IMG/VR virus record: IMGVR_UViG_3300033148_004307
Length of the DNA: 20,000 nt
DNA from: an uncultured virus (IMG/VR IMGVR_UViG_3300033148_004307)
Taxonomy: Duplodnaviria > Heunggongvirae > Uroviricota > Caudoviricetes
Strand: one strand, 5' to 3'
Shown here: one piece after another, positions 5,264 through 20,000 of the stretch
Numbering within the stretch: position 1 is the stretch's first letter
How the letters are laid out: each line of letters begins with the position of its first letter
The notes under the pieces: model-generated
What the model was told of the DNA's origin: nothing
What the model saw: only the letters and a program-made list of their open reading frames with translations
Databases searched by the model: none
Program-made: the position numbers and the translations under genes

Positions 5264-5597
5264 TAAACTTCCAGCTTTGCATAAGAATATTATGGATACA
5301 AAAACGATGGATGAATTATATAACATTTATGTTAAAATTTTAGATTCAGATTCCTATGGAAAGGATAAAGCACATGGTTGTAAAACTGAACAGTACATTG
5401 AGAAACACTATATCAAATACAAACAATGTTGTGCTAAATGTCCACAATACAAAAAGGATTTTGATAAAAATGCAATAGGTAAAATAAGCCTATTTCAAAA
5501 ATTATTATTAAGGATGGTAGCACATCCAAATCAAGATTATATACTTAATAAAATGAGGATTCCAGATGCAAGAGGAAGCGACAGAACCAAAAAATAA
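5250..5597 (+). CDS. Hypothetical protein with Cys/His cluster (HGC...CCAKC), possibly metal-binding
   Basis: Overlaps both neighbours in operon fashion; GGGG upstream. Confidence 0.65.
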   Translation: MIKDDKLPALHKNIMDTKTMDELYNIYVKILDSDSYGKDKAHGCKTEQYIEKHYIKYKQCCAKCPQYKKDFDKNAIGKISLFQKLLLRMVAHPNQDYILNKMRIPDARGSDRTKK

Positions 5598-7218
5598 AGA
5601 AGGAAGATTTTTCAATCCAAAATTCCGACAGGATATAGTAGATGAACAAAGGAAAAGATGTATTGATAATTTCCATCAAGATTATGCCCCACATTTATTG
5701 TCTTATTACTGTTCAAAGATGCTCGATATTGAAATTTATTCACATGAGGAATATAAACAGATTGAGGAATTATTGAATAGTCCTGAAACTACATTATATG
5801 GTAAAGGAGTAATTGAAGATTCACTTTATAGAAAATATTGGAAATTGATTGAATTATCTGGTCATAAATTAGATGAATTTGGAATGATAAAAGAAAAGGT
5901 AAATTACGAGCAAAGATTGGCAGAAATAGAGGAAAAATACGCTTACTATCAATGGAACGTATTATTCAAGCTCACAGATTTCATATTTAAATCAGGAAGC
6001 AATAATATAATTGTGGGTGGAATGGGGGGTGGAAAATCCAATCTCTGCCTAGAGCTATCACTTGAGGCAGTACAAACAGGCAGATATGAATTAATAACAA
6101 ATCTGGGAATTAAAGAAGAATGGGAGAAAAATTCAGATATTCATCATGTTACTTGGCTATCGGATATGTTAAGGATTGTATGTAAAAATAAAATACGAAA
6201 CTTACAGTTAGTCAAAGAGGGAAAGACCCATTTGCAAAAAGAAATGATTTGTATTATAGATGAATGTGAAAATCTTTTTCAAAGTATCAGGAGTGGTTCT
6301 AAGAATATTGTTGACTTCAATTTGCTCAATCAGATGGCACGTAAATTAAGTATGAGCTGGTCGTTTGTATTCCATCGCTATAGAGATGTACCCACACATA
6401 TTAGAAACTCTCCAAATCTTAATTGTATTATTATGAAAGGATGTGATTTAGAAGGAAATCCAATTCAAATGGATATAGATAAAGTTGTCTTATATTTTCC
6501 TGTACTACAATCACAAATTAAGATTAGTGGTATACCAGAATGTGAAGCACTTGATACATACGAATATTCATCATTTAAATTTGAACATGAGAGCTTTCCC
6601 GAAAAATCAGTAGATATTAATTATTTATTATTGATTGCATCACAGGAGAAATCATATAATGCCCCAAGCAAGATATTAGAATATTTAGATGGTCAAAGAA
6701 TAGAGAATCTAAAGAGGGAAGATATAATAAAAGAAGTAATGAGAATAGAAGAAGTAAATAGAGAGCAAATGGTACTATGTGATAATAAAACAGATTATAG
6801 AATATTGATTGAAGATATTTTTACTAAAGAATTTGGATTTACTGATTTAGAAAAGATAAAATCAGTAAAAAATATCATAAAAGATACAGTAAATAAAGCA
6901 TGGGCTATGGATAGAATACAGAGCAATCTACAAGAGATAAGGCAGAATAATGTAAATTATATCACTTGCGATTATGACGAAATATATAAATTTTTAAAGG
7001 GAAATAAAAACCCTACAATCAAGTCATTAGTAAGGCATCAATATAGAGATTTTGAAAAGAATGAATATGAAGCTCTATTGAAACAGGGAATCTCTAATAC
7101 AAAGTTAAGAACATTATACGGTTCATTAGATGAGATAATAGGAAAGAAAATTGAAAATCAAGTGAGGACAGATTTAGAAACAGAGGAAGAAATGGAAGAA
7201 TTGGTATTACAAATCTAA
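5566..7218 (+). CDS. P-loop ATPase, Zot/inovirus-pI-like or FtsK-HerA superfamily (putative morphogenesis/packaging ATPase)
   Basis: Walker A IIVGGMGGGKS (GGMGGGKS at 6016-6039), LITNL strand, Walker B ICIIDE (6247-6264), ARK followed by a hydrophobic strand. Confidence 0.75.
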   Translation: MQEEATEPKNKEGRFFNPKFRQDIVDEQRKRCIDNFHQDYAPHLLSYYCSKMLDIEIYSHEEYKQIEELLNSPETTLYGKGVIEDSLYRKYWKLIELSGHKLDEFGMIKEKVNYEQRLAEIEEKYAYYQWNVLFKLTDFIFKSGSNNIIVGGMGGGKSNLCLELSLEAVQTGRYELITNLGIKEEWEKNSDIHHVTWLSDMLRIVCKNKIRNLQLVKEGKTHLQKEMICIIDECENLFQSIRSGSKNIVDFNLLNQMARKLSMSWSFVFHRYRDVPTHIRNSPNLNCIIMKGCDLEGNPIQMDIDKVVLYFPVLQSQIKISGIPECEALDTYEYSSFKFEHESFPEKSVDINYLLLIASQEKSYNAPSKILEYLDGQRIENLKREDIIKEVMRIEEVNREQMVLCDNKTDYRILIEDIFTKEFGFTDLEKIKSVKNIIKDTVNKAWAMDRIQSNLQEIRQNNVNYITCDYDEIYKFLKGNKNPTIKSLVRHQYRDFEKNEYEALLKQGISNTKLRTLYGSLDEIIGKKIENQVRTDLETEEEMEELVLQI

Positions 7219-7400
7219 GCTAAGTCGAATAATATAAGCGATTATGCAAAATAAAAATGAGGGAATCGAGGGCATCTTTCCTATATAAATAAAAAAAAGA
7301 AATAGTAAAGTAAAGTAAGTAAATATCAATTCAAAATTAATAAATTAAAAAAACCAAAAAATTGAAAATTCAAAATTAATGAAAGTAAGGAGTGAATGAA
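7219..7400 (+). promoter_or_regulatory. AT-rich intergenic control region with TATA-like element and direct repeats
   Basis: TATATAAAT at ~7282-7290; AATTCAAAATTAAT at 7328-7341 and 7367-7380; tandem GTAAA units at ~7305-7323. Confidence 0.45.
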
Positions 7401-8822
7401 ATGGCACGAAGTAATGGTAAAGGATGGCATGGCGATAGTAGAGGACATAGCAAAGCTAGTAGGAAAGGATGGGATAGTAGGAGATTCGACAGAACATTAG
7501 CATCAGCTACAGGGGGTAAAGGTGGATTATCAATACAAAGAGGCGTATCCCCAGATTATTATAGACCTACTGAAAAACTTATCGGAGTAGATAAGATAGA
7601 TGATTTCAAGAAAGGATTAACTGATGAAGGATTCAAGAAAATATCAAGATATGGATTAGCAAAAATCAAAAAAACTCCAAGTAGCCCTACAAATTACGAA
7701 TTAGGGGTATTGAATACTAAAGATAGAATGTATTATGACAACATAATTGTAGATAGGAAAGGAAATATACCTGAATTACAGGGAATACTCAGAATGATAG
7801 ATGTTGAATCTGGTGGGGATAGAGGAAAGAGAAATGTTCTAATTGATTTAGGTCAAACTGCCGAAAAAGTATATGCACAAGATGAAAAGGGAAATTGGAA
7901 ATGGTACATGAATCCAAATAAATCAGATATTGAACATATTGATACTGACTATTCACAATATGCTAAAACCTATGATAAGATTAAAGATTCAAAACAGTTC
8001 AAAGCTGGAAAGGGAATAGTCTTAATGGCTAGAACCCCAGAGGAAGAAAAAGATATGAGGGAAAGAATAGCTAAAGCCTTTACAAAGAAAGAACAAAAGG
8101 AAATGGGGTTAGTGTTCATATCTGTAACACATACTCCAAGAGGCATAGCTGGAAGGTACTACCCAGATGCAAATCCAAAACAAGTTCAAGTAGACCCCGA
8201 TTTTGTTGATACATCAGATGTTCTAATACATGAATTGGTACACCACCATAGAAATGTATCCGAATCTAGAACAGGGGCTTTAAAACATATCAAAAGATGG
8301 GATGGGGAAGATAGAGATTTAGAAGAATCCACAACCGAAGCTGAAACATTAGCTAGAGAAAAACCATTCGATAAATCCAAAGCTGGATATTACGGTTCAT
8401 TAAAGCACGTTAAAGGAGTAGAGAAAACCAGAGCAGAATTTAAAGATAGAAAAAGATTCTCAGGATATGATACTACATCTGTTAGAAAAAGATTTGGAAA
8501 ATTAGATATGACAGATGATGGAAAGCTCGAAATATCAGAAAGGAACAGAGCAAAGCTCAGTAAGAAGAATATAAGAGGAAAAAGAGCAATAAACAAAGTT
8601 AATAGAGAATATCCAGAATCAGAAATATCTCGATTAAAAATCAAAGGTAGAGTAGAAGCAATTGACACATTCCACGAATATGAAGATGAAGCTGGAAAAA
8701 CTCGAATGAAAATCCAATCATACAATCCAAAAGCAAAGAAGGTAAAAGCCCCAGAAGTGAAGGGATTGAAGAAAAAGAATATGTATGAATGGAAGGATGG
8801 AAAGAAGGTAAAAGTACGATAA
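7392..8822 (+). CDS. Basic protein with a zincin-like metallopeptidase motif (HExxH); probable start ATG 7401
   Basis: AGRYY...VQVD...VLIHELVHH...E pattern; N-terminal GWHGDSRGHSKA; GGAG 8 nt before ATG 7401. Confidence 0.7.
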   Translation: MNEMARSNGKGWHGDSRGHSKASRKGWDSRRFDRTLASATGGKGGLSIQRGVSPDYYRPTEKLIGVDKIDDFKKGLTDEGFKKISRYGLAKIKKTPSSPTNYELGVLNTKDRMYYDNIIVDRKGNIPELQGILRMIDVESGGDRGKRNVLIDLGQTAEKVYAQDEKGNWKWYMNPNKSDIEHIDTDYSQYAKTYDKIKDSKQFKAGKGIVLMARTPEEEKDMRERIAKAFTKKEQKEMGLVFISVTHTPRGIAGRYYPDANPKQVQVDPDFVDTSDVLIHELVHHHRNVSESRTGALKHIKRWDGEDRDLEESTTEAETLAREKPFDKSKAGYYGSLKHVKGVEKTRAEFKDRKRFSGYDTTSVRKRFGKLDMTDDGKLEISERNRAKLSKKNIRGKRAINKVNREYPESEISRLKIKGRVEAIDTFHEYEDEAGKTRMKIQSYNPKAKKVKAPEVKGLKKKNMYEWKDGKKVKVR

Positions 8823-8834
8823 AAGGTGGTCTAA

Positions 8835-9164
8835 ATGCCCCAAGATAACGATATAATAATAATTCAGATGGATGAACCCGATACAATAATCGAAAGACCT
8901 AGAAGAAAACCTAGAAGTAAGCCAAAACCAAAATTAAAAACAGGATTAATATCTGGTATCAGAATGGATATTGAAGAATTAAATGAATTAAAAGGGGCAA
9001 ATTTAAGGAAAGATACCAGAACAGATATATTTCTAGGAGAAAGCATAGATAAAAGTCAGAAAAAAGAAATCTATAAATATCGAAAGGTTTACGTTAGAGG
9101 GCATACAAAAAAAGGAAAAGATGGTAAAATACTTGTTATAAAACCTTACATGAGAGATAAATAA
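8835..9164 (+). CDS. Basic 109-aa protein carrying a family-B-like tag motif at its C-terminus
   Basis: KVYVRGHTKKGKDGKILVIKPYMR aligns without gaps to KTSVREHERKTKSGKKTTVRKHDR; GGTGG RBS. Confidence 0.75.
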   Translation: MPQDNDIIIIQMDEPDTIIERPRRKPRSKPKPKLKTGLISGIRMDIEELNELKGANLRKDTRTDIFLGESIDKSQKKEIYKYRKVYVRGHTKKGKDGKILVIKPYMRDK

Positions 9165-9199: not shown

Positions 9200-10180
9200 A
9201 TGGCAAAAAAGAAAGTAGAACCAAAGACATTAGGAGAGGCATATAAAGGAACGATACTAACCTTTATTGTAACAATATTCATAATATCGGTTGGATTTTT
9301 TCTACCAATGATTACTGCAAAAGAAATTCAAGATGCTATGGAAGGAAAAGGAAGATATGAACCGACAGATACTTTAATTTGGGATTTGAATAGTGAATCA
9401 GATTTATATGATGTAGAATACACATCAGGACAAGATGAGAGGGGAGTCAATCACAGAAGTTCTACAAGTTGTAATGTAGATAGTCGAAATGTACCTCATT
9501 CAGTATGGTGGAAATATAAGGCATATTCTACTGCTTATACAAATAGGTGGGATGGAATGACAGGTAGGGTGGAATTTTCAGAATTGGAGATTGAGGGTAC
9601 TGTGGATAATAGTTTGACATTTCCATTTACACTTGATGGGGGAGATACACCTCGTAATTTGGGCGATAACATACTTCATAATAATGAAGGGGTCAGGTTG
9701 CACTTTAAAGTAGATTCAGATACATTCATAAAAAATGACGCTACAAAAATAATATTGTTCAGCGATTTTGACACATCAGGAATAGAATCTTCTATTGCCC
9801 CACGACATAGAATAGAATTTAGAACAGAAAATGGATATTATATAATTCAAGATTGGACATATAAAGACGTAGGAGATTCTATCGTAATTGATTTAGATAT
9901 GTCAGATTTAATCGGAATAGCATCAATCTCTGGTAATGAAGAATATCTGTTTGTTTGGGAAAGATTACATGATAACAATGATGATGATTTTACTTATTCT
10001 ACCCCTTATATTTTTGATTTACAAATACATGGGTTACAGGGAAAGCCAAATGCAATAACTCTATTGTCAGTATGGTATATGATACAAGCAGTATTAATTT
10101 TCATGTTAGGATTTGTAATGCTACCTCAAATATCATTAGGTAGATTATCTGGAATGTTAAGATTAAATAAAGAATGGTAG
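9200..10180 (+). CDS. Family A two-TM variable surface protein, 326 aa
   Basis: LGEAYKGT...FFLPMITA N-terminus; FDLQIHGL...WYMIQAV...MLPQISLG C-terminus. Confidence 0.85.
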   Translation: MAKKKVEPKTLGEAYKGTILTFIVTIFIISVGFFLPMITAKEIQDAMEGKGRYEPTDTLIWDLNSESDLYDVEYTSGQDERGVNHRSSTSCNVDSRNVPHSVWWKYKAYSTAYTNRWDGMTGRVEFSELEIEGTVDNSLTFPFTLDGGDTPRNLGDNILHNNEGVRLHFKVDSDTFIKNDATKIILFSDFDTSGIESSIAPRHRIEFRTENGYYIIQDWTYKDVGDSIVIDLDMSDLIGIASISGNEEYLFVWERLHDNNDDDFTYSTPYIFDLQIHGLQGKPNAITLLSVWYMIQAVLIFMLGFVMLPQISLGRLSGMLRLNKEW

Positions 10181-10203: not shown

Positions 10204-11391
10204 ATGGCAAAAAGAATTGTAAAGGAATCATTACAAAAACCTCTTGGAGAGGCATATAGAGGCACTTTGAGTACATTCATAGTAACATTGATGATTTTAT
10301 TTGTTGGATTCTTCCTACCAATGATTACTGCCAAAAGGCTAGAGGATGCTAGAAGGGGGGAATCATTATTGGTCTTAGATACCACCCCTACAGAAATGAT
10401 TATATGGGATTTAAATTCAATAAATGAAATAAAACCCATAACAATAAGACATTCTAGTTATTCGCATTGGGTAGCTGGATATTATAAATGGGGGTCTAAT
10501 CTAGGAACATTCGTAAGTCCATTCGACCAATCAAGTGGAAGCTGGATAGAAGTAGGGGGTACTTATCAGTATATGGGTGTAAAAACATCAGATAGTTATG
10601 TTTCATCTTATAGAAATGTGAGGAAAACCCCGACTTATGTATTTACAGATGCCGACTTTCCAGAAAAAGACAAAACAGTAGATAATTATGCTACAATGAC
10701 TCTAACAAATGATGTGAAAATGCAGGGTACTACAATGAGGCACGTTGTAGGTAGCTCTTATTGGAACTCTAAACATTGGTGGTCAGAATCAGATGAAAGA
10801 TTTAGAGCAGAACAATTACACATTTATTGTGATTTTGATTTAGATACATGGATAGATAATGAAGCTACAGAAATAAACTTCTTTTGGAAAACTTATTCAC
10901 ATACAAATTCATGGGCAGTTTTGCCTTATGTTTATACTAATGGATACTTGAGAGATAGAATTACAGGAAATACAAAAGCCATATTTGTTGGACAATATCA
11001 GCAAGTTACAGGAAATCCAATCATTGTAGAAAGAACAGAATTAATAACAGTAACAGATTTGATAGATATTAATAATTGGGTTAGTGCAAATAACAAAGAT
11101 GAAATAGTATTGCATTTTAGTATGTATGGGTGTACTTCCTCTCCATCCACTAATCAAAGGAGAGGTTGTTTTCTACCTAATTCAGTAATGATATTTGATT
11201 GTTATGTGTCAGGACTCGTAGATGTAGAGGAAGAAAAACCTACAAAATGGCTATCATCAGTTGATAAATTTTCAATATATATGATATTAGAATCAATATT
11301 TATAATTGCAGTAGGATTCGTTATGCTACCACAATTATCAATAGGAAGATTAGCAGAAATGTTAAGATTAGTAGAAAAGAAAAAGAACTAG
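10204..11391 (+). CDS. Family A two-TM variable surface protein (long subtype), 395 aa
   Basis: Same conserved termini; aromatic-rich unique middle; the stop codon is the TAG of the motif. Confidence 0.85.
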   Translation: MAKRIVKESLQKPLGEAYRGTLSTFIVTLMILFVGFFLPMITAKRLEDARRGESLLVLDTTPTEMIIWDLNSINEIKPITIRHSSYSHWVAGYYKWGSNLGTFVSPFDQSSGSWIEVGGTYQYMGVKTSDSYVSSYRNVRKTPTYVFTDADFPEKDKTVDNYATMTLTNDVKMQGTTMRHVVGSSYWNSKHWWSESDERFRAEQLHIYCDFDLDTWIDNEATEINFFWKTYSHTNSWAVLPYVYTNGYLRDRITGNTKAIFVGQYQQVTGNPIIVERTELITVTDLIDINNWVSANNKDEIVLHFSMYGCTSSPSTNQRRGCFLPNSVMIFDCYVSGLVDVEEEKPTKWLSSVDKFSIYMILESIFIIAVGFVMLPQLSIGRLAEMLRLVEKKKN

Positions 11392-11410: not shown

Positions 11411-12595
11411 ATGGTAACAAAAACAAAAATAGCAAAAGAAGTAGTACAAAAACCATTAGGAGAGGCATACAAAGGAACATTAAGTACATTCATTGTTACA
11501 CTTATGATTTTATTCGTAGGATTCTTCTTACCAATGATTACTTCCGATAGACTTGAAAATGCTAGAAGGGGAGAAAATACATGGGTAGCAGATATTACAA
11601 AAGAGGAATATCTTATTTGGAGTATAGAATCAGATGCAGATTTCAACTCAGTAGAAATAAGAGCAAGAAGTGATGATGGATATTATAATGGAAAACATCA
11701 ATGGGGAAAAGCATCTCATATTACAAGTTCTCAGGGAATAGAACATTTGATGGCATCAACGTGGAAAAACCCAAATCAAGATACGGATTTCAATAATTAT
11801 TGGCTACAAAGAACAAGATTACCAAATAGCCAACATAGGTATAAAATGGTTTATAATGAAATAAATTATGCTTATACTGATATTTCATTCGGTGGTTCTG
11901 ATAAAGTAGAAGGAAATTATATGGTGGGAAATCTTATTGATGATGTTCCATTGGGTAGTGTCTATCATCCATCTAGCCAACCATGTTTACATTGGTCTTA
12001 TAATTCTCTGCGTGACCCACATAATGGACACCGACATTCAGAACAATTGAATTATTGGACTAGATTTGATTTAGATGAATGGGTAGATAACGAAGCCACA
12101 ACATTAAAAACATATATAGAATTTGAGGCAGATTATGATTATTGTAGATTCATAGCAGAGGTATATTCTCAGAATACAGGGAGTAAACGTAGAATAGACT
12201 CTCAAGTAATAAATGTAAATCCATCATCCACAATCAAAATATCTACAGTATCAGATATTACATTAGAGGATTTTATAGCAATTCAAACTTTAGTAGGTGG
12301 TGGAGATTTATGTATAAGATTAAGATATTATGGAGTGGATTCAAGTGGGTCAGAGGATTATACTAAGGGGATGCCAAAAACCGACCCTCAAGTAATTTTC
12401 GATGCTTCAGTATATGGATTATTGAGTATTGAGGAAGAAAGACCTGTCCAATGGGTTTCATCAATGACTAAATATTCAATTTATATGATATTAGAATCAA
12501 TATTGATATTTGCAGTAGGATTCGTTATGCTACCACAATTATCAATAGGAAGATTAGCAGAAATGTTACATTTAGTAGAAAAGAAAAAGATATAG
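11411..12595 (+). CDS. Family A two-TM variable surface protein (long subtype), 394 aa
   Basis: Termini nearly identical to the 10204 ORF, middle divergent; the stop codon is the TAG of the motif. Confidence 0.85.
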   Translation: MVTKTKIAKEVVQKPLGEAYKGTLSTFIVTLMILFVGFFLPMITSDRLENARRGENTWVADITKEEYLIWSIESDADFNSVEIRARSDDGYYNGKHQWGKASHITSSQGIEHLMASTWKNPNQDTDFNNYWLQRTRLPNSQHRYKMVYNEINYAYTDISFGGSDKVEGNYMVGNLIDDVPLGSVYHPSSQPCLHWSYNSLRDPHNGHRHSEQLNYWTRFDLDEWVDNEATTLKTYIEFEADYDYCRFIAEVYSQNTGSKRRIDSQVINVNPSSTIKISTVSDITLEDFIAIQTLVGGGDLCIRLRYYGVDSSGSEDYTKGMPKTDPQVIFDASVYGLLSIEEERPVQWVSSMTKYSIYMILESILIFAVGFVMLPQLSIGRLAEMLHLVEKKKI

Positions 12596-12848: not shown

Positions 12849-13853
12849 ATGGCAAAAAAAGTACAACCAAAGACAATAGGAGAGGCGTATAAAGGAACTA
12901 TCAGTACCTTTATAATTACAATGTTCATCATCTTTTTTGGATTCTTTCTACCAATGATTACTGCAAATGAATTACAAAATGCAAGAGAGGGCAAAGGAAG
13001 ATTTACACCAGAGGAATTACTTGTATGGGATTTCAATAGCAAATCGGATTTACAGGAAGTTCAATATACAACTACAAGAGATGTAGAGGGAAGATTACAT
13101 TATAGGGCTTATGATGAAGATATACCAACAACACCAGAATCAGTATTTTGGGCATATCATAGCAAAACATCTTCAAGCAATCAGATAAGTGGAGTATGGA
13201 ATGGGGTTTCAGAGGATATTCGTATAATTGGTTTAGATGTTGAAAATGTAGTGGATGAATATGGAGTATATACTTTCATACCAGATGCTTACAAAAGTCT
13301 ATGGACATATCCACATGAAAAGGCATCAGCATCACAATATAGAGAGGAAGAATTTAGAATATATTTTGATATATCATCAGATTTATTGATTAAGAATGAT
13401 GTAACAAGAATAGATTTCTTTGTAGATTATGATGAATCCAATATCCAAAATCCTAATACAGATGAACCAAAATTTAGAATAGAATATGGAACATCCATAG
13501 GGGAAGAATCAATTACAGGATTTAAATTATTGAAAATGGGAGAAATAAATTCGGTTGAGGTTACTTTAGAAGATTTGATTGAAATAAGTTCAATGAAATC
13601 ATCAACTCTGGAGTATCTAGCAGTAACAGTAAAATTAGATAGCAGTAGATATGATGAATTTACTGATTTCACTCAAATAATGTTTGATTTACAGATTTAT
13701 GGGCTAAAAGGTAGCCCCAATGCAGTAGCAATCCTATCAGCTTGGTATATGGTTCAAGCTGTTTTAATCATGTTGTTAGGGGTGTTTATGCTACCTAGCA
13801 TATCATTTGGTGGATTTTTTGAAAAAGTATCAAAATTAACTCGTAGTGTGTAG
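12849..13853 (+). CDS. Family A two-TM variable surface protein, 334 aa
   Basis: Conserved termini plus GKGRFTP, SVFWAY, DVTRID and EDLI motifs shared with the 769 and 9200 ORFs. Confidence 0.85.
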   Translation: MAKKVQPKTIGEAYKGTISTFIITMFIIFFGFFLPMITANELQNAREGKGRFTPEELLVWDFNSKSDLQEVQYTTTRDVEGRLHYRAYDEDIPTTPESVFWAYHSKTSSSNQISGVWNGVSEDIRIIGLDVENVVDEYGVYTFIPDAYKSLWTYPHEKASASQYREEEFRIYFDISSDLLIKNDVTRIDFFVDYDESNIQNPNTDEPKFRIEYGTSIGEESITGFKLLKMGEINSVEVTLEDLIEISSMKSSTLEYLAVTVKLDSSRYDEFTDFTQIMFDLQIYGLKGSPNAVAILSAWYMVQAVLIMLLGVFMLPSISFGGFFEKVSKLTRSV

Positions 13854-13903
13854 GCACTACAATTATTAATTATTATTTATGTAAGTAAAGGAGAGGATTA
13901 GAT

Positions 13904-14581
13904 ATGCCAAGAGCAGAATCATTTGAAGGAAAAAAGAAAACATCAGTAAGGGAACATGAGAGGAAAACCAAATCAGGAAAAAAAACTACAGTAAGAAAGC
14001 ACGATAGGAAAGTAGATGGTGGTTTAGATAAATACAAATCATTCAGGATACTAAATGGGAAAAAAACAGAATTAGATGTTTTTAGTCCATTAGAAAGAGA
14101 ATCAGAAGAAAAATTCCAAGCAGAAATGATACAAGCAGAAAAAGATTTTTATGAAGGGGAATTATCTCAATCAGAATTTGAGGAAGGATTAAAAGTATTG
14201 GGTTATCAAGAGGGGGATTACGATGATGCAAACTTTGATGAAAGGATGCTTATGGAAATGCAATTAAGAAAACTCATTGGAAAAGGACAAAGCCCAGATT
14301 TTGAAAAATATAAACAAGATGTAATGGTAGCAAATATAATGATGGATAGTTGGTATCAAAATAAGTATGAAGATAGGACACCAGAACAATTATTAATGCT
14401 AGTAGATTTAGCACATGAAACTAAAGAGAGTTTAGGAGATACAGGACTTGATAATTTTTCATATTCAGTACCTATGAATGAACATTTAGATAGTGTTAAA
14501 GAAGGATTGGCAGAGTTAAGAAACAGAAAAATCATGTCAAAACTAAAAAAACCAGATTATGATGATGATGATTATCTGTAA
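13904..14581 (+). CDS. Family B protein (basic N-terminal tag + acidic, probably helical cargo), 225 aa
   Basis: MPRAESFEGKKKTSVREHERKTKSGKKTTVRKHDR; GGAGAGG leader. Confidence 0.85.
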   Translation: MPRAESFEGKKKTSVREHERKTKSGKKTTVRKHDRKVDGGLDKYKSFRILNGKKTELDVFSPLERESEEKFQAEMIQAEKDFYEGELSQSEFEEGLKVLGYQEGDYDDANFDERMLMEMQLRKLIGKGQSPDFEKYKQDVMVANIMMDSWYQNKYEDRTPEQLLMLVDLAHETKESLGDTGLDNFSYSVPMNEHLDSVKEGLAELRNRKIMSKLKKPDYDDDDYL

Positions 14582-14641
14582 TAAATCACAATTATCATAA
14601 TAGTAGGCACTACATATTGAAAGTAATGGAGAGGATTAAAA

Positions 14642-15202
14642 ATGCCAAAAATGGAATCATTTGATGGAAAAAGACAAACAACAGTAAAAGAACATTTAAG
14701 AGAAATAAAATCAGGAAAGACAATCGTAGTTAGACAACATCACAGAAATTTAAAAGGAGAAACAAGATACGTTTTAGGTCAAGATAATAAATTCCATTTA
14801 ACTGATAGAAATGATAGAGATTGGCATGATGGAATACCACAAAAGCTATTGGATGATAGTATAACCCAAATTACTGATATTATGGATGCGAAAGTAAGAA
14901 GGGATATTAATAACGAATTTACAGAAAAATTCAATAATAAATATTTTGAAAATATCCCTACAGATGAATTATTCAATATTATAAAATCCAATGGTTTCGT
15001 GCCTTTAATGGAAGATAATACAGAATGGGAAGGGTGGCTATTGGGGAGTAAAGGTAGAGTAGAGATAATGTTAGGAAATAAGGATAGTTCACTAGAAAAA
15101 GATGAATCGACATTCTATAATGAAGTTGAAAATGCCATGTTTGTATTATCATGGTATAAAATGCCATCTGGTAATTATGAAGTAGTACCTTATATTAGCT
15201 AG
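14642..15202 (+). CDS. Family B protein, 186 aa
   Basis: Divergent tag MPKMESFDGKRQTTVKEHLREIKSGKTIVVRQHHR; unrelated C-terminal domain ending LSWYKMPSGNYEVVPYIS. Confidence 0.85.
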   Translation: MPKMESFDGKRQTTVKEHLREIKSGKTIVVRQHHRNLKGETRYVLGQDNKFHLTDRNDRDWHDGIPQKLLDDSITQITDIMDAKVRRDINNEFTEKFNNKYFENIPTDELFNIIKSNGFVPLMEDNTEWEGWLLGSKGRVEIMLGNKDSSLEKDESTFYNEVENAMFVLSWYKMPSGNYEVVPYIS

Positions 15203-15243
15203 GCACTACATTTATTAATTGAAAGTAATGGAGAGGATTAGAT

Positions 15244-16299
15244 ATGCCAATAATGGAATCATTTGATGGAAAAAGAAAAACATTAGTAAGAGAACATGAG
15301 AGGAAAACCAAATCAGGTAAGAAAACCACAGTAAGACAACATGATAGGACTTTGAGAAATAAGATTATTAACGATATTCAAAGAGGAATCTATAAAGCAG
15401 AATATGGATTAGAAACTGATTCTGATAGTAAGTATTTCTTTTTAAGAACAGAAAAAGGGTTATCTGATGCAGAGGCACAATATGAAGTATTCAGGAGTAG
15501 AGGACTATTGCCTGATAATGAATTATTGGATTTGGAAGATAAATTGCATAATCTTCACGATAAATTTGATTTTGAGGAAGGATTTTCAGATAAAGATACA
15601 GAGGAAAGAGTACAAAAAGGATTAGATTATGCTAGTGAGTTGTTGGATGCTGGAAAAACTGATGAAGCAAATAAAATTATTGGTAGTTTAGAAACTTATG
15701 AAAAAATTGTGATGCCATTAGATATACAAAATCAAAATAATAAAAGCGAAGTCAAAGATGCAGAAGATTTAGTTAAAGAATGGAATGAGGGCTATTTACC
15801 AGAAACAACAGATGAATTTAGAAGTTTATCTGATAATGTAAGAAAGGAATTAGCTAGTGGATTTCATGGAAATACACCTAGAGTAGAAGAATTAAGAAAT
15901 ATATTATCCTTTTCAGATGAAAAATTATTAGAACTCAAAGGAAAAAGAGATATGATTAAATTTAAATATCCAGAGGGTACTTGGGTCAAATCTGGGAATA
16001 CAATCTCTCCAGAAAGTAAAATTGTATTGGGAAATGATGGTCAAGAACAGATAGTAGAAAAAGGTAACGATACAAGTATGAGAATAAACCACTCAATGTT
16101 AAAGAATGTACTAATATCACGAATAAGAGAGGCAGAAAAAAACAGAGATAAGAATTATGCTGAAATGAGTAGGAATGAATTACAAACTTTGGAAAGAAAA
16201 TACAAAGAAGCAAAAGAGAATACAAAGAAGCCTTACATACATTGGGATGAATATAGATATGACAGAGCAGTAATAGAGGGTCATTTCATACCAGAATAA
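15244..16299 (+). CDS. Family B protein, 351 aa
   Basis: Tag plus multi-module cargo; shares an internal KEWN..ELASG module with the 16353 ORF. Confidence 0.85.
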   Translation: MPIMESFDGKRKTLVREHERKTKSGKKTTVRQHDRTLRNKIINDIQRGIYKAEYGLETDSDSKYFFLRTEKGLSDAEAQYEVFRSRGLLPDNELLDLEDKLHNLHDKFDFEEGFSDKDTEERVQKGLDYASELLDAGKTDEANKIIGSLETYEKIVMPLDIQNQNNKSEVKDAEDLVKEWNEGYLPETTDEFRSLSDNVRKELASGFHGNTPRVEELRNILSFSDEKLLELKGKRDMIKFKYPEGTWVKSGNTISPESKIVLGNDGQEQIVEKGNDTSMRINHSMLKNVLISRIREAEKNRDKNYAEMSRNELQTLERKYKEAKENTKKPYIHWDEYRYDRAVIEGHFIPE

Positions 16300-16352
16300 G
16301 TTTAAATGTAGGCACTACATTAATTATATGAAAGTAAAGGAGAGGATTAGAT

Positions 16353-17549
16353 ATGCCAAAGATGGAATCATTTGATGGAAAGAAAAAAACAACCGTAAGA
16401 GAACATGAGAGAACCACACAATCAGGAAAGAAAACAACAGTAAGAAAGCACGAAAGAAAATTAATCAAAGAATGGAATAAAGGAGAAATCCCAGATAACA
16501 AAACTGATTGGAATACATTATTACAAAATACCAATAATGAATTAGCTAGTGGATATTGGGCAGTACAACCAGAAAGATTGAATGAATTAAGAGAAATCAA
16601 ATATTATGCTCAAGAGGAATTAGAAAAAATAAATACAGAGGAAGAAATGGCAGAATCCTTTTTAAAATCAAGATTCGTAAGTGATGATTCAGATATGAGA
16701 TTTGCAATCAACAATAATCAAGCATACAAAGAATATACTGATTTAGCTAATGAAAGGGGCTTTCAATACGCAAATTGGTTCTATGGATATGATTATGACC
16801 CTGAATTAGTCGGAAAGCCAATGACTCTCGGATTTTCAGATGTAATAAAACAAGCAGTATTAATTCAAGATTGGGTTACAGAGGATGATGAAGGAAATCC
16901 AAAAAACCCCGATTATATTAATTCTCTTACAGATGAACAATTAAAATTATCATTAAAAAAATCATATATCAATGCCCATAATGATGCAATTGATTTAGCA
17001 ATCCCACAAATAAGAAAATTATCCAAAGATTTCACTAAAAAGGATAAAGGAGAAATAAAAAACACATTCCCCCCATTCGTTACTAAACAAATAATAAAAA
17101 TGGTTGATAGGGAAGGATTAACAACCCCTGAAAATTGGGATTATAGGAATTGGGAAAATGAAGATGGAAATGAATTTATCACATTCCATAAAATGAGTGG
17201 AGTAACTTCTAGGACAGGATATGGTATGACTAGCCCTAGCAAATCAATGGAAAATTTAAGAATTGTCGAGAACAAAGAACATGGAACGTGGGATGTAAGT
17301 TATAACAATAAAATAAAGGATGAAAGATTGGTTGGAAGATTCAATAATAAAGTTAAAGCTATGGGCTATGCTCAAGATATTATTGATTTATATTATAAAG
17401 ACACAAAACAAGTTAAAAAAGAATCAGAACAAAAATCAGAAAAATTACCACCACATCTACAAAAAGTAGTAGATGATTATGAGGAAAAAAGATTGAAAAG
17501 TAAATTTAAAGTATCAGATTTCAAAGTGGAAGGTTATACTGTCGAGTAG
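16353..17549 (+). CDS. Family B protein, 398 aa
   Basis: Tag followed directly by the KEWN..ELASG module, then unique sequence. Confidence 0.85.
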   Translation: MPKMESFDGKKKTTVREHERTTQSGKKTTVRKHERKLIKEWNKGEIPDNKTDWNTLLQNTNNELASGYWAVQPERLNELREIKYYAQEELEKINTEEEMAESFLKSRFVSDDSDMRFAINNNQAYKEYTDLANERGFQYANWFYGYDYDPELVGKPMTLGFSDVIKQAVLIQDWVTEDDEGNPKNPDYINSLTDEQLKLSLKKSYINAHNDAIDLAIPQIRKLSKDFTKKDKGEIKNTFPPFVTKQIIKMVDREGLTTPENWDYRNWENEDGNEFITFHKMSGVTSRTGYGMTSPSKSMENLRIVENKEHGTWDVSYNNKIKDERLVGRFNNKVKAMGYAQDIIDLYYKDTKQVKKESEQKSEKLPPHLQKVVDDYEEKRLKSKFKVSDFKVEGYTVE

Positions 17550-17599
17550 AATAATTAGGCACTACATTAATTATATGAAAGTAAAGGAGAGGATTAGAT

Positions 17600-18229
17600 A
17601 TGCCAAGAGCAGAATCATCCGATGGAAAGCGAAAAACATCAGTAAGGGAACATCAGAGGAAATCAACATCTGGAAAGAAAACAACTGTTAGAAAACATAA
17701 TAGAAATGTAAGAATTAAAAATGTAAATTATGTATCATGTAGTATTAAAGATGATGAACTTGAATGTAATTTTCAAGATAATAAAGGGAATGTAACTAAG
17801 ATTGATAAAGTAAGTAGATTAATGATTGAACAACCCAAAAAAACATCAATAATAAATATGGATGAACAAACAATAGTTAATTCGGATTTAGAATTAAAGT
17901 CAGATGCAGTAGTAAGGGAAGATTCAGGAAGTGATGAAGTATCTATCTATCTTTATAAAGAAAAAGCGAAAGCAGAATGGGATATTAATAGACCAACTCC
18001 CGAAGATATGCGTACAATGGGTACAATGGGAATGAATGAAGAATTAGGTAGAATAAGTAGACAAACATGGGATTACAAATTTAAGGATGAAGATAAAAGA
18101 AATTATTTAATGAATGTAACTAGAGAAATACAAAAATTAATTGATGATGGGTTTGTTAAAACATCAAGAGAAGAATTAAGAGCATTACATACTTGGTTAG
18201 ATAATAATGTAATTAGAAGCTATATTTAA
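17600..18229 (+). CDS. Family B protein, 209 aa
   Basis: Tag plus unique C-terminal region; GGAGAGG leader. Confidence 0.85.
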   Translation: MPRAESSDGKRKTSVREHQRKSTSGKKTTVRKHNRNVRIKNVNYVSCSIKDDELECNFQDNKGNVTKIDKVSRLMIEQPKKTSIINMDEQTIVNSDLELKSDAVVREDSGSDEVSIYLYKEKAKAEWDINRPTPEDMRTMGTMGMNEELGRISRQTWDYKFKDEDKRNYLMNVTREIQKLIDDGFVKTSREELRALHTWLDNNVIRSYI

Positions 18230-18276
18230 TAATTAGGCACTACATTATTTATTGAAAGTAAAGGAGAGGATTAGAT

Positions 18277-19128
18277 ATGCCAAAAGCAGAATCATTCGAT
18301 GGAAAGAGAAAAACATCAGTAAGAGAACATGAGAGAAAGACAAAAACAGGAAAGTCCACAACAGTTAGAAAGCATGATAGAAACCTGAAAGATAAAGCTA
18401 AAGCTATGGGGATTGAAGCCTTTAAAGAAGGAAAAACAGGAGTACCAATACACAATAAAGAATTTTTTGAATTTATGAAAAATAACATGAATGGGGTAAA
18501 AGCTGGAGAATTGTTGGAAGCCTACAACAAAGGTTATGATTCAAAAAGAAAAGAGGCAACAGATGAAAGAATGAAGGAATTTTGGGAGAAAGAAAGAAAA
18601 GAACATCCACCTTTAACACCAGAGGAAGAAATAATTAATTTTCAAAAAGGCATGGCAGAATCAATAAATAATCGGTATGAAAGGGGAGATTATGATAATT
18701 TACCTCTTGATGAATTGAAAAATTTAACCAAAATGATTGATAAATATTTATATGAATTAGAGGAAAAGGGAATGAAAAGAACAAATCCACTATTCCAGAA
18801 ATTACAGAAAACAAGTTTCAATGTCCATGATTTAAAGGAAGATAAAAAACAGGAAGAAAAAATAAAATTCAGGACTAAAAATAAAGATGCTAAATATTTA
18901 CACACATTCTTTGAGGAAAAGAAATTACCTAGCGTATCATGGGAATTACAAGATAATGAAGGTACTACACATTTCATAGATAGTGATTTTGTAGATGAAG
19001 CTATATTCAATGCCCCACAACACGAACAAAAAGGAATCGGAGATATGATAAGGAAGATAGATTTTGCAAATGGGGATGTAAACGACTATCTTAAACATTT
19101 AGCACAAGCACTTGTAAATAATTATTAG
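18277..19128 (+). CDS. Family B protein, 283 aa
   Basis: Tag plus unique C-terminal region (TFFEEK...KIDFANGDVNDYLKHLA); the stop codon is the TAG of the motif. Confidence 0.85.
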   Translation: MPKAESFDGKRKTSVREHERKTKTGKSTTVRKHDRNLKDKAKAMGIEAFKEGKTGVPIHNKEFFEFMKNNMNGVKAGELLEAYNKGYDSKRKEATDERMKEFWEKERKEHPPLTPEEEIINFQKGMAESINNRYERGDYDNLPLDELKNLTKMIDKYLYELEEKGMKRTNPLFQKLQKTSFNVHDLKEDKKQEEKIKFRTKNKDAKYLHTFFEEKKLPSVSWELQDNEGTTHFIDSDFVDEAIFNAPQHEQKGIGDMIRKIDFANGDVNDYLKHLAQALVNNY

Positions 19129-19159
19129 GCACTACATTATTTAGTTGCGTGGTATAAGT

Positions 19160-19519
19160 ATGAGCATGGCATTAACACATTTCAGTATAGGGGCTATAAT
19201 ATCATTATTGATATTCAGAGCAATAGATTATCGTAGTGATAGAGTAGGCATTAATGATTATCTAAGATATGATATAATTGTAGCAATTATCGGGGGGTTG
19301 TGGGCATTGATACCTGATAATCGAGTCTTACATGGTGGTATAGAGGAATTATTTGGTTTTATGTTATGTAATATATTTTTCCTTCATTGTTTATTAGATG
19401 AATTAGACTCAAAGGATAGTTATATTGTTTCACTAATATCATTCGGATTGCTTTTATTGACGATTAATTTAATTAATTATGAAATCGGGATAAATCAAAA
19501 AAAGAATAATAATGTATAG
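19160..19519 (+). CDS. Family C membrane protein, possible YdjM-like metal-dependent hydrolase
   Basis: MSMALTHF...GGLWALIPD...NIFFLHCLLD; start moved from TTG 19145 to ATG 19160 by alignment with its paralogue. Confidence 0.7.
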   Translation: MSMALTHFSIGAIISLLIFRAIDYRSDRVGINDYLRYDIIVAIIGGLWALIPDNRVLHGGIEELFGFMLCNIFFLHCLLDELDSKDSYIVSLISFGLLLLTINLINYEIGINQKKNNNV

Positions 19520-19555
19520 TAAGTAGGCACTACAAATAATTTATGAGGTATCATT

Positions 19556-19903
19556 ATGAGTTTCGCTATGGGTCATTTCTGTTTAGGGGCATCATTGTCT
19601 TTAATTATATTCAGAGCAATAGATTATCATAGTGAAAAGATAAGGTTGAGTGATTACCTAAGATATGATATACTTATAGCTAGTATTGGTGGATTATGGG
19701 CTATGATACCTGACCTACCTAGCATCTGGGGAGTAATGGATGAATTATTTGGTGGAATCTTGTGTAATATATTTTTCTTCCATTGTCTTTTAGATGAATA
19801 CGACTCACAAGATAGTATTTTATTTTCAGCAATAATGTTCGGATTATTTTTATTAACAATCAATGTTATTAATTTTCAAATTACAAGTAATGGAGAGGAT
19901 TAG
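19556..19903 (+). CDS. Family C membrane protein, paralogue of 19160..19519
   Basis: MSFAMGHF...GGLWAMIPD...NIFFFHCLLD; GAGGT RBS. Confidence 0.75.
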   Translation: MSFAMGHFCLGASLSLIIFRAIDYHSEKIRLSDYLRYDILIASIGGLWAMIPDLPSIWGVMDELFGGILCNIFFFHCLLDEYDSQDSILFSAIMFGLFLLTINVINFQITSNGED

Positions 19904-19905
19904 AA

Positions 19906-20000
19906 ATGCCACGAATGGAATCATCTGATGGAAAGCGAAAAACATCAGTAAGAGAACATGAGAGGAAAACACAATCAGGAAAATCCACTACAGTAAAACA
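19906..20000 (+). CDS. Family B protein, N-terminus only (runs off the window; not in the ORF track)
   Basis: Translates as MPRMESSDGKRKTSVREHERKTQSGKSTTVK; AAGTAATGGAGAGGATTAG leader. Confidence 0.85.
   Translation, partial: MPRMESSDGKRKTSVREHERKTQSGKSTTVK

Follow-up and report, generated by a model that had tools for sequence, protein, structure and literature searches.

The stretch of DNA considered here is IMG/VR record IMGVR_UViG_3300033148_004307, 20,000 nucleotides (nt) from an uncultured virus placed in the Caudoviricetes; the whole of it is called the window below. From position 13,904 onward this low-GC element carries an array of seven open reading frames (ORFs) whose products begin with a common basic peptide (the tag) and continue into different C-terminal parts (the cargos; Table 1). 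A sequence-only reading of the window had described these seven ORFs, and all of them are indeed present on the plus strand. When the tag profile (A5) was scored against all six-frame fragments of the window, exactly these seven reached 48-61 bits, and the next best fragment scored 7.4 bits.

Table 1. Features of the window, with the tagged genes listed first (aa, amino acids)
Feature	Position	Strand	Description
Tagged gene 1	13904..14581	+	225 aa; tag is residues 1-38; acidic cargo, no family match
Tagged gene 2	14642..15202	+	186 aa; most diverged tag among the seven
Tagged gene 3 (o15244)	15244..16299	+	351 aa; 61-aa module at residues ~176-237, common with gene 4
Tagged gene 4 (o16353)	16353..17549	+	398 aa; 61-aa module directly after the tag, residues ~37-99
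Tagged gene 5	17600..18229	+	209 aa
Tagged gene 6 (o18277)	18277..19128	+	283 aa; cargo matches phrog_19203 and phrog_6004
Tagged gene 7	19906..20000	+	only the first 31 residues precede the window end; complete form P0004 (175 aa) has a GNAT cargo
Leader example	13851..13903	+	junction motif TAGGCACTACA, then AAGTAAAGGAGAGGATTAGAT, before the ATG of gene 1
Two paralogous multi-pass membrane protein genes inside the array	19145-19519, 19556-19903	+	relative upstream of the tag gene in locus L002
P-loop ATPase	5566-7218		550 aa; GGMGGGKS, hhhhDE at IIDECE
HELVHHH (HExxH) protein	7392..8822	+	476 aa; N-terminal GKGWHGDSRGHSKASRKGW stretch
Weak motif copy	8835..9164	+	109 aa; C-terminus (residues 83-99 onward, ..VYVRGHTKKGKDGKILVIKPYMR) is a weak degenerate motif copy; 7.4 bits, E 0.058 in the window

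The tag follows the pattern MP(K/R/I)(M/A)ES(F/S)(D/E)GK(R/K)(K/Q)TxV(R/K)EHxR...SGKxxxV(R/K)xHxR. In the alignment of the seven tags, 14 of the first 30 positions are invariant (M1, P2, E5, S6, G9, K10, T13, V15, E17, H18, R20, G25, K26, and V30), and the net charge of the peptide is strongly positive, at +6 to +10. The internal twofold repeat proposed earlier was confirmed; the unit is G-K-x(2-3)-T-x-V-R-x-H-x-R, and the two halves (GKRKTSVREHER and GKKTTVRKHDR) differ by one residue in length. We pooled the 21 pairs of tag-coding segments and obtained proportions of synonymous (pS) and non-synonymous (pN) differences of 0.44 and 0.15, respectively, with a pN/pS of 0.33. The tag copies are therefore old, and their amino acid sequence is maintained by purifying selection at the level of the peptide. 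Recent gene conversion does not explain the identity of the tags. Distant relatives of the tag, described below, preserve only its amino acid pattern.

About 45 nt of 5' leader (TAGGCACTACA ... AAGTAAAGGAGAGGATTAGATATG) are conserved along with the tag. The same leader precedes tagged genes 2 to 6, with the motif TAGGCACTACA starting at 14604, 15200, 16309, 17556, and 18234, and only its Shine-Dalgarno-proximal part is retained before gene 7. The 24 nt preceding the ATG (AAGTAAAGGAGAGGATTAGAT) are more conserved than the synonymous sites of the tag; the leader is therefore under a constraint of its own. The motif TAGGCACTACA occurs at 15 sites between 4563 and 19534 of the window (13 exact, two with one mismatch), all on the plus strand, against an expected count of 0.17, and a count of 15 was not reached in any of 200 shuffles. 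Its copies follow the preceding stop by 0-22 nt and are 10-42 nt away from the next start; in five cases the TAG of the motif serves as the stop codon of the preceding gene, and the motif is found before tagged and untagged genes alike. This motif could mark gene junctions, for example as a promoter specific to the element, as a site of RNA processing, or as a signal for termination and re-initiation; we take it to resemble the promoters of K11/SP6-type single-subunit RNA polymerases. An attC-like site was considered and ruled out, as all 15 copies are on one strand. No enrichment of sigma-70 promoters was found, no terminator was found between the tagged genes, and there was no tRNA or Rfam match.

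The leader and the junction motif raise the question of whether conservation acts mainly on the nucleic acid, with the leader and the first 110 nt of the genes kept as a recombination handle or translation-initiation cassette for shuffling or expression and the peptide as a by-product. A non-coding leader more conserved than the synonymous sites of the tag, and the 15 occurrences of TAGGCACTACA where 0.17 were expected, speak for this. However, the ratio and the synonymous divergence given above mean that codons drift while the peptide is kept, distant relatives of the motif in DNA of 35-67% GC hold the peptide pattern, and the junction motif also stands before untagged genes. We give this explanation a very small probability.

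Behind the tag, similarity stops at about residue 38, as had been claimed. We compared 11 cargo parts, six from the window and those of P0002, P0003, P0004, P0006, and P0016, which are tagged proteins of the same contig or of related contigs. In an all-against-all BLASTP comparison the sole significant pair was o15244 and o16353 (E 3e-8 over 61 aa), and the next best pair had an E-value of 0.027. The 61-aa module shared by these two proteins (KEWN.G..P....) is located directly behind the tag in o16353 and about 140 residues further in within o15244. This difference in position is evidence for module shuffling within the array. All 11 cargos are net acidic (-4 to -31) and between 137 and 389 aa long. 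Transmembrane (TM)-like segments are lacking in all six complete tagged window proteins, compared to 15 of the 26 window ORFs that have one.

The cargo of P0004, the full-length form of gene 7, is a GNAT acetyltransferase (PF00583, 23.2 bits against a cut-off of 20.7) and has a weak rimI-like GNAT match in NCBIfam. The cargo of gene 6 matches phrog_19203 at residues 40-87 (1e-5) and phrog_6004 at residues 205-281 (5e-13), and its C-terminal domain makes up a hypothetical protein by itself in both coliphage FtMidnight and Mycobacterium phage Thonko. Nine proteins (P0009, P0012-P0015, P0017-P0019, and P0026) have the cargo domain of P0003 behind other N-termini. The cargo modules are thus mobile, the P0003 domain being joined to nine other N-termini and the o18277 C-terminal domain occurring alone in phages. 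For the cargo of o16353, the ESM Atlas gave no usable match.

An ordinary family of paralogs without modular cargo would have to be considered at this point, in which tandem duplication was followed by divergence of everything except the N-terminus. As expected of such a family, the genes follow one another in tandem with a common leader and upstream motif, and all of their cargos are acidic and free of TM segments. This explanation does not fit with one cargo being a GNAT and another carrying the phrog_6004 and phrog_19203 domains, nor with the spread in cargo length, the differing positions of the 61-aa module in two members, and the presence of the P0003 cargo domain behind unrelated N-termini in nine other proteins. 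The same motif is also found on S-adenosylmethionine (SAM)-lyase, InPase, and ADP-ribosyltransferase (ART) modules in distant proteins (see below). Taken with these points, common descent of whole genes is very unlikely to account for the array.

Several smaller observations concern the tagged proteins and their cargos. The P0003 cargo domain has the pattern ..KEEYEKRMLS.VHD.LEDANFH.. and is at the C-terminal end of the nine proteins. Several of these start with MIKL(G/T/N)..(I/L/T).L and further on contain a conserved (T/V)..FK(S/T/N)K..RDAA(I/V)KAG(S/T)H; the MIKL-type start and this stretch may be another common N-terminal module. A P0003-like unit of tag plus cargo appeared to be present within the large protein P0051 (colinear BLASTP match, E 1e-5); it was rejected when a jackhmmer profile of the cargo by itself missed P0051. 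A Tyr or Phe is present within the last four residues in nine of 11 tagged proteins and in three of 20 untagged window ORFs (Fisher p 4.6e-4 in a post hoc comparison). The ends concerned are ..DYL, ..PYIS, ..SYI, ..NNY, ..IYL, ..FYE, ..FIPE, ..YTVE, and ..KYKE (window positions 14570-14578, 15188-15199, 16285-16296, and others), and they may be a second signal on the tagged proteins.

A search of 5.8 billion proteins with residues 1-40 of the tag returned only P0002, P0003, and P0004 (three of three candidates). These, P0068, and the window's own proteins are all recorded on one contig of 78,015 bp, which would thus hold at least ten tagged genes. P0006 and P0016 are tagged proteins from short related contigs. 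A further contig, locus L002 (1,061 bp), contains at 490-636 a tag-only ORF of 48 aa with the same leader, located downstream of relatives of the window's membrane proteins; the junction motif occurs there in the variant form TAGTCATTACA. After this ORF the sequence of L002 turns G+C-rich; this may be where a cassette was truncated or an element ends. A 14-residue tag match in genome contigs (locus L001) was discarded as spurious, since it runs into a stop and unrelated sequence.

The sequence-only reading had suggested a profile search for the tag beyond the window. Among 7995 scored proteins (>78 aa, profile A5, E <= 0.01), this search recovered a motif family of 43 proteins, which we sorted by hand into groups from their sequences. 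Ten have window-type tags, and in 16 further small proteins the motif is located at residues 1-14; together these make 26 N-terminally tagged proteins. Nine are large multi-domain proteins with two to six copies of the motif, six are proteins of about 155-190 aa with an internal motif, which turned out to be tail-completion proteins, and two are signal-peptide proteins with tandem copies. In the tag-only alignments (A4/A5), the core of the motif is V-x-x-H-x-R, four residues, G, four residues, V-x-x-H-x-R. V15, H18, R20, G25, and V30 are invariant in all 20 aligned sequences, H33 is present in at least 90%, and the window tags fit both the pattern and profile A5.

No Pfam family covered the motif in the motif-bearing proteins that were scanned, and none of the 20 scanned tag- or motif-bearing proteins other than the tail-completion proteins had a PHROG match. 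The tag profile had no match to PDB sequences at E <= 10, and a literature string search for motif fragments gave nothing relevant among the matches listed; a literature search on signals of anti-defense proteins packaged in virions gave nothing relevant either. The tag belongs to a widespread mini-domain for which we found no earlier description. The two signal-peptide proteins, P0046 and P0053, are small and consist of a signal peptide followed by two or three tandem motif copies (..MVKAHTMKTKSGKVVIVKSHKM..), so that the motif is also present in apparently secreted bacterial proteins. In the window itself, the C-terminus ..RKVYVRGHTKKGKDGKILVIKPYMRDK encoded at 8835-9164 has a Tyr in place of the second His, as in the distant relatives P0032 and P0053; its score is marginal.

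The large proteins contain 36 motif copies in 13 proteins, all of them N-terminal or between domains, with the extended consensus (F/Y)PLLxKAxVKxHxR+TKSGKxxxV+EHxDSR. P0020 carries an ADP-ribosyltransferase domain (PF03496, 7e-9), a weak metallopeptidase match, and six motif copies, and P0032 an InPase domain (PF18823, 3e-41) with three. P0033 is arranged as motif, GNAT-like segment (recognized by eye; no Pfam match), motif, and a domain of the S-AdoMet lyase family (PF23780, 5.7e-10). Four IMG/VR loci add further arrangements: InPase, motif, and LPD1 in L014; InPase and two motifs in L019, adjoining a ParB_N plus ART-PolyVal protein; a RadC JAB domain and two motifs in L013; and a protein of 1,834 aa with three motifs in L011. 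In their domain content, these proteins look like the polyvalent-type phage proteins described in passages of PMC5512222.

The six proteins with an internal motif match PF05069 (P0048, 1.8e-23) and the PHROG category "tail completion or Neck1" (phrog_26, 7e-30; phrog_5, 4.6e-19). At loci L003 and L004 the motif-bearing tail-completion genes are located within ordinary tailed-phage structural modules. Cultured viruses with the motif in this protein are Methanocaldococcus fervens tailed virus 1, Acinetobacter phage 5W, and Brevundimonas phages. In the archaeal virus among them, Methanocaldococcus fervens tailed virus 1 (L005, 3016-3552), about 25 residues, nearly all of them Lys or Gly, separate the two hairpins. 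An hhalign comparison of the N-terminal tags only (A9) with the tail-completion profile (A6) gave a probability of 96.8% and an E-value of 2.2e-10 over 27 columns with 56% identity, and in BLASTP the similarity of tag and tail-completion proteins extended up to 36 residues for some pairs. The tail-completion profile had one chance match to PDB sequences (E 0.88), and the window proteins had no PF05069 or PF04883 match at E <= 0.1.

We modeled the tail-completion protein P0039 with AlphaFold2 (AF2), using A6. The model has a predicted local distance difference test score (pLDDT) of 76, with 77-86 for motif residues 95-125. The motif forms four strands in two hairpins with a His at each turn, flanked by a short helix (88-93) on one side and by the C-terminal helix (130-155) on the other; it is thus predicted to fold as a double β-hairpin. 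When the model was compared with 48,161 chains using VIA-align, the best match was 9mu2_P from the 80α/SaPI1 neck (Z 9.6, root-mean-square deviation 3.2, 103 of 109 residues), followed by a next best Z of 6.6. Chain 9mu2_P is taken to be 80α gp51, judged by its 109-residue length and modeled range.

The passages on gp51 in bioRxiv 10.1101/2024.12.10.627806 describe it as a monomer within the neck, between the DNA end and the N-termini of the tape measure, whose extended loop between two long helices caps the last DNA base pair through Y78, F81, and R87, and whose positive face is directed towards the DNA. 80α gp51 has no insert of this kind; 103 of the 135 residues of the P0039 model align to it and about 32 remain unaligned, and this number is consistent with the motif being an insert. 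In the model, the insert would fall in the gp51-type DNA-capping loop. A Foldseek search with the same model found nothing at E <= 1e-3; a weak likeness to the DNA-binding arm of HU (4dky_B, 47 columns, probability 0.94, E 0.68) is not significant.

In IMG/VR, small genes with an N-terminal tag are present in two distinct kinds of locus, L007 being one and L008-L010 together the other, and in both kinds an SPP1-type portal gene (PF05133, 2.5e-22 and 1.5e-23) is no more than 3 kb away. At L007 the tagged gene, encoding 161 aa, ends 4 nt before the portal gene, with a terminase gene upstream and a capsid gene downstream; at L009 the tagged gene is 2.5 kb before the portal gene.

These findings bear on a reading in which the tag is a general nucleic-acid clamp that acts only inside the cell, where it would tether enzymes or inhibitors to the nucleoid of the host or to the element's own DNA or RNA and would take no part in packaging or delivery. 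A strongly basic composition, homology to a part of the tail-completion protein that topology places at a DNA-contacting loop, the weak likeness to the HU arm, and a window without recognized virion genes would all agree with a clamp. However, the other homes of the motif are virion or injected contexts (tail-completion proteins, polyvalent proteins, and portal-adjacent genes), no benefit is evident in having ten different acidic proteins tethered to DNA in the producing cell, and the HU match is not significant. We consider a purely intracellular clamp unlikely.

A different role could be read from the neighboring genes. The HExxH protein has nine homologs with 33-89% identity on contigs of up to 131 kb, in which H280, E281, and H284 are invariant, and from its sequence it is a possible zincin-like peptidase. 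It had no Pfam match, no match to PDB sequences, and no tblastn match in phages, and its AF2 model (mean pLDDT 47.9, best structural Z 5.9) allowed no fold to be assigned. The tag could then be a handle for a protein machine, either as a recognition or cleavage site for this HExxH protein, another protease, or a chaperone, or as an export signal addressed to the element's many membrane proteins, for instance in the loading of enveloped particles or vesicles. The HExxH gene is 5 kb upstream of the array and conserved in nine relatives, two membrane-protein genes lie inside the array with the same neighborhood in L002, and the Tyr/Phe ends (nine of 11 tagged against three of 20 untagged) are a possible second signal. 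In passages of PMC5512222, embedded metallopeptidases are proposed to release the modules of polyvalent proteins, and our motif is located exactly at such module boundaries. Against this, the motif is also located inside tail-completion proteins, where one would expect no cleavage and no export, the tag lacks a hydrophobic segment, and the fold of the HExxH protein is not assignable. A protein-machine handle is, in our judgment, quite improbable.

A separate set of genes in the window consists of five paralogs of 326-395 aa without a family match (769-1773, 9200-10180, 10204-11391, 11411-12595, and 12849-13853). They start with MAKK..K(T/P)(L/I)GEAY(K/R)G(T/S).STF(I/M).T and carry a TM-like segment at either end, with a variable part in between. 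Their K-G and the hydrophobic residues after it look like an archaeal class III (prepilin-type) signal.

The reading we prefer, to which we give about an even chance on the sequence evidence, is that the tag is a DNA- or virion-lumen-associating address on co-delivered effectors, so that the array would in effect be an unbundled polyvalent protein. The N-terminal 36-38 residues would be a portable, strongly basic double β-hairpin mini-domain serving as the address. It would hold unrelated, soluble, net-acidic proteins on the DNA of the element, or at the DNA end or in the lumen of the particle, so that they would enter the next cell together with the genome. The array would be the split-gene counterpart of a polyvalent protein, each module having its own gene, its own copy of the motif, and its own strong translation leader. 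Three things are inferred here: the motif would touch DNA or the channel, the window proteins would be packaged or co-transferred, and their cargos would act as effectors. The GNAT cargo, the mobile cargo modules, and the nearby HExxH protein fit an unbundled polyvalent protein; metallopeptidases are the commonest partner domain in polyvalent proteins, according to passages of PMC5512222.

The nucleic-acid-binding or virion-loading address suggested from the sequence alone is supported in part, and the comparative evidence leans towards it. It gained from the kinship with the tail-completion insert, the polyvalent repeats, and the portal-adjacent genes, from the GNAT cargo, and from the SAM lyase in a distant relative; it lost through a window with no recognizable virion gene and with 15 of 26 ORFs that look like membrane proteins.

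The observations that weigh against the address reading are the following. No recognizable portal, terminase, capsid, or tail gene was found in the 20-kb window, where 24 ORFs were scanned with Pfam and PHROGs and nine untagged ones with NCBIfam; the window is 20 kb of a contig of about 78 kb. Its left 13.8 kb are dominated by membrane proteins and the ATPase (5566-7218), which is the only ATPase in the window. BLAST found no relatives of this protein in phages, plasmids, or IMG/VR, and its neighbors by language model and by structure, Zot-like or packaging ATPases, are no more than leads. Polyvalent proteins are, in passages of PMC5512222, tied to portal-terminase phages and scarce in archaea, and the window is therefore not the context described there. 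Window-type tags were not found in 2.9 million IMG/VR contigs (12 pattern matches, none confirmed) or in 50,697 phage records, so that the link to virions is made through distant relatives that share about 25 residues. A family could be assigned to only one of the seven window cargos (the GNAT), and apart from the weak rimI-like match of P0004 the cargos had no matches to PADLOC, NCBIfam, or Pfam effector families. The location of the insert in the DNA-capping loop is also a weak point, as it follows from the order of the elements in the model and not from a residue-level superposition.

A bolder version of the address reading, which we regard as rather unlikely, would make the motif a universal "travel-with-the-DNA-end" module of bacterial and archaeal tailed viruses that either arose from the DNA-capping apex of the tail-completion protein or was donated to it. 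Its bearers would be parked at the leading DNA end or in the lumen of neck and tail and would enter the host ahead of, or with, the first DNA, and the module would be used either as beads between polyvalent modules or on separate tagged genes that can be swapped singly. In this view, the paired His and acidic residues at its two hairpin tips (REHE.., ..KHD) may be a small metal site on which the fold of the domain depends. If the element is not a tailed virus, the module would have been taken over by a different, membrane-containing kind of particle.

To our knowledge, the way in which phages choose the proteins that accompany their genomes is known for only a few models, such as the T4 capsid-targeting sequence (CTS), P1 Dar, and MuF fusions. 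What is new here is that the tag has recognizable relatives among polyvalent proteins and in a neck protein that resides in the lumen, and its function thereby becomes testable; the test can be direct because the cultured viruses named above carry the motif in their tail-completion proteins. If the address reading is true, the motif, with its 25-36 residues, would be a sequence handle for injected first-strike proteins, candidate anti-defense proteins among them, in uncultured viruses. It would also give a reason for how polyvalent proteins are built, and a small tag that is a candidate for loading foreign proteins into particles.

Four known systems can be compared with the array. The T4 CTS is a peptide of about 10 residues, and the tag is three to four times longer, strongly basic, predicted to form two hairpins, and has homologs inside neck proteins. 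What the two share is a short conserved N-terminal peptide on otherwise diverse proteins, here seven tags at 48-61 bits with one similar pair of cargos. No prohead protease site, scaffold core, or T4-like gene was seen in the window, and the likeness concerns function only. As described in passages of PMC3012670, the CTS of the internal proteins IPI-III and Alt encapsidates proteins that counter host defenses and can load foreign proteins such as GFP.

In passages of PMC5512222 (Iyer, Burroughs, Anand, de Souza, Aravind 2017), polyvalent proteins are proposed to enter the cell by injection along with the DNA, to be cut in many cases by metallopeptidases embedded in them, and to have been assembled from domains that also exist in solo versions. 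The same motif is at the module boundaries of InPase, LPD1, ART, RadC, and metallopeptidase-like proteins, and the window has a GNAT cargo and a nearby HExxH protein; none of the six other cargos matched a family of the polyvalent repertoire (MPTase, GNAT, ART, ParB, InPase, and LPDs). In contrast, each of the window genes has one tag and one cargo and is separated from the next by stop codons and leaders, where a polyvalent protein joins two or more disparate domains in a single chain. The window shows no portal-terminase or type IV secretion system context; the link to portal genes is seen for distant relatives of the motif. The motif is not mentioned in the main-text passages and term matches of PMC5512222, whose supplementary domain tables could list it under an LPD name.

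The tail-completion proteins (80α gp51, HK97 gp10, SPP1 gp16.1, λ gpZ, and P2 gpS; PF05069/PF04883; PHROG 5/26) include a subfamily with the same double-hairpin motif. The window proteins hold the motif only, without the two long helices or the rest of the fold, and the hhalign match covers just 27 columns of the insert. The MuF polymorphic toxins of temperate phages have a conserved N-terminal part that sets the route and variable C-terminal effectors, as passages of PMC5576092 (Jamet et al. 2017) describe, and in this arrangement they are similar to the tagged proteins. However, their N-terminal part is a MuF head protein domain of about 300 aa, and the window contains no MuF (Phage_Mu_F) Pfam match. 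Judged by their sequences, then, the window genes appear to belong to none of the T4 CTS, polyvalent, tail-completion, and MuF families; they resemble the first and the last of these in function and are tied to the polyvalent and tail-completion proteins by the motif they share.

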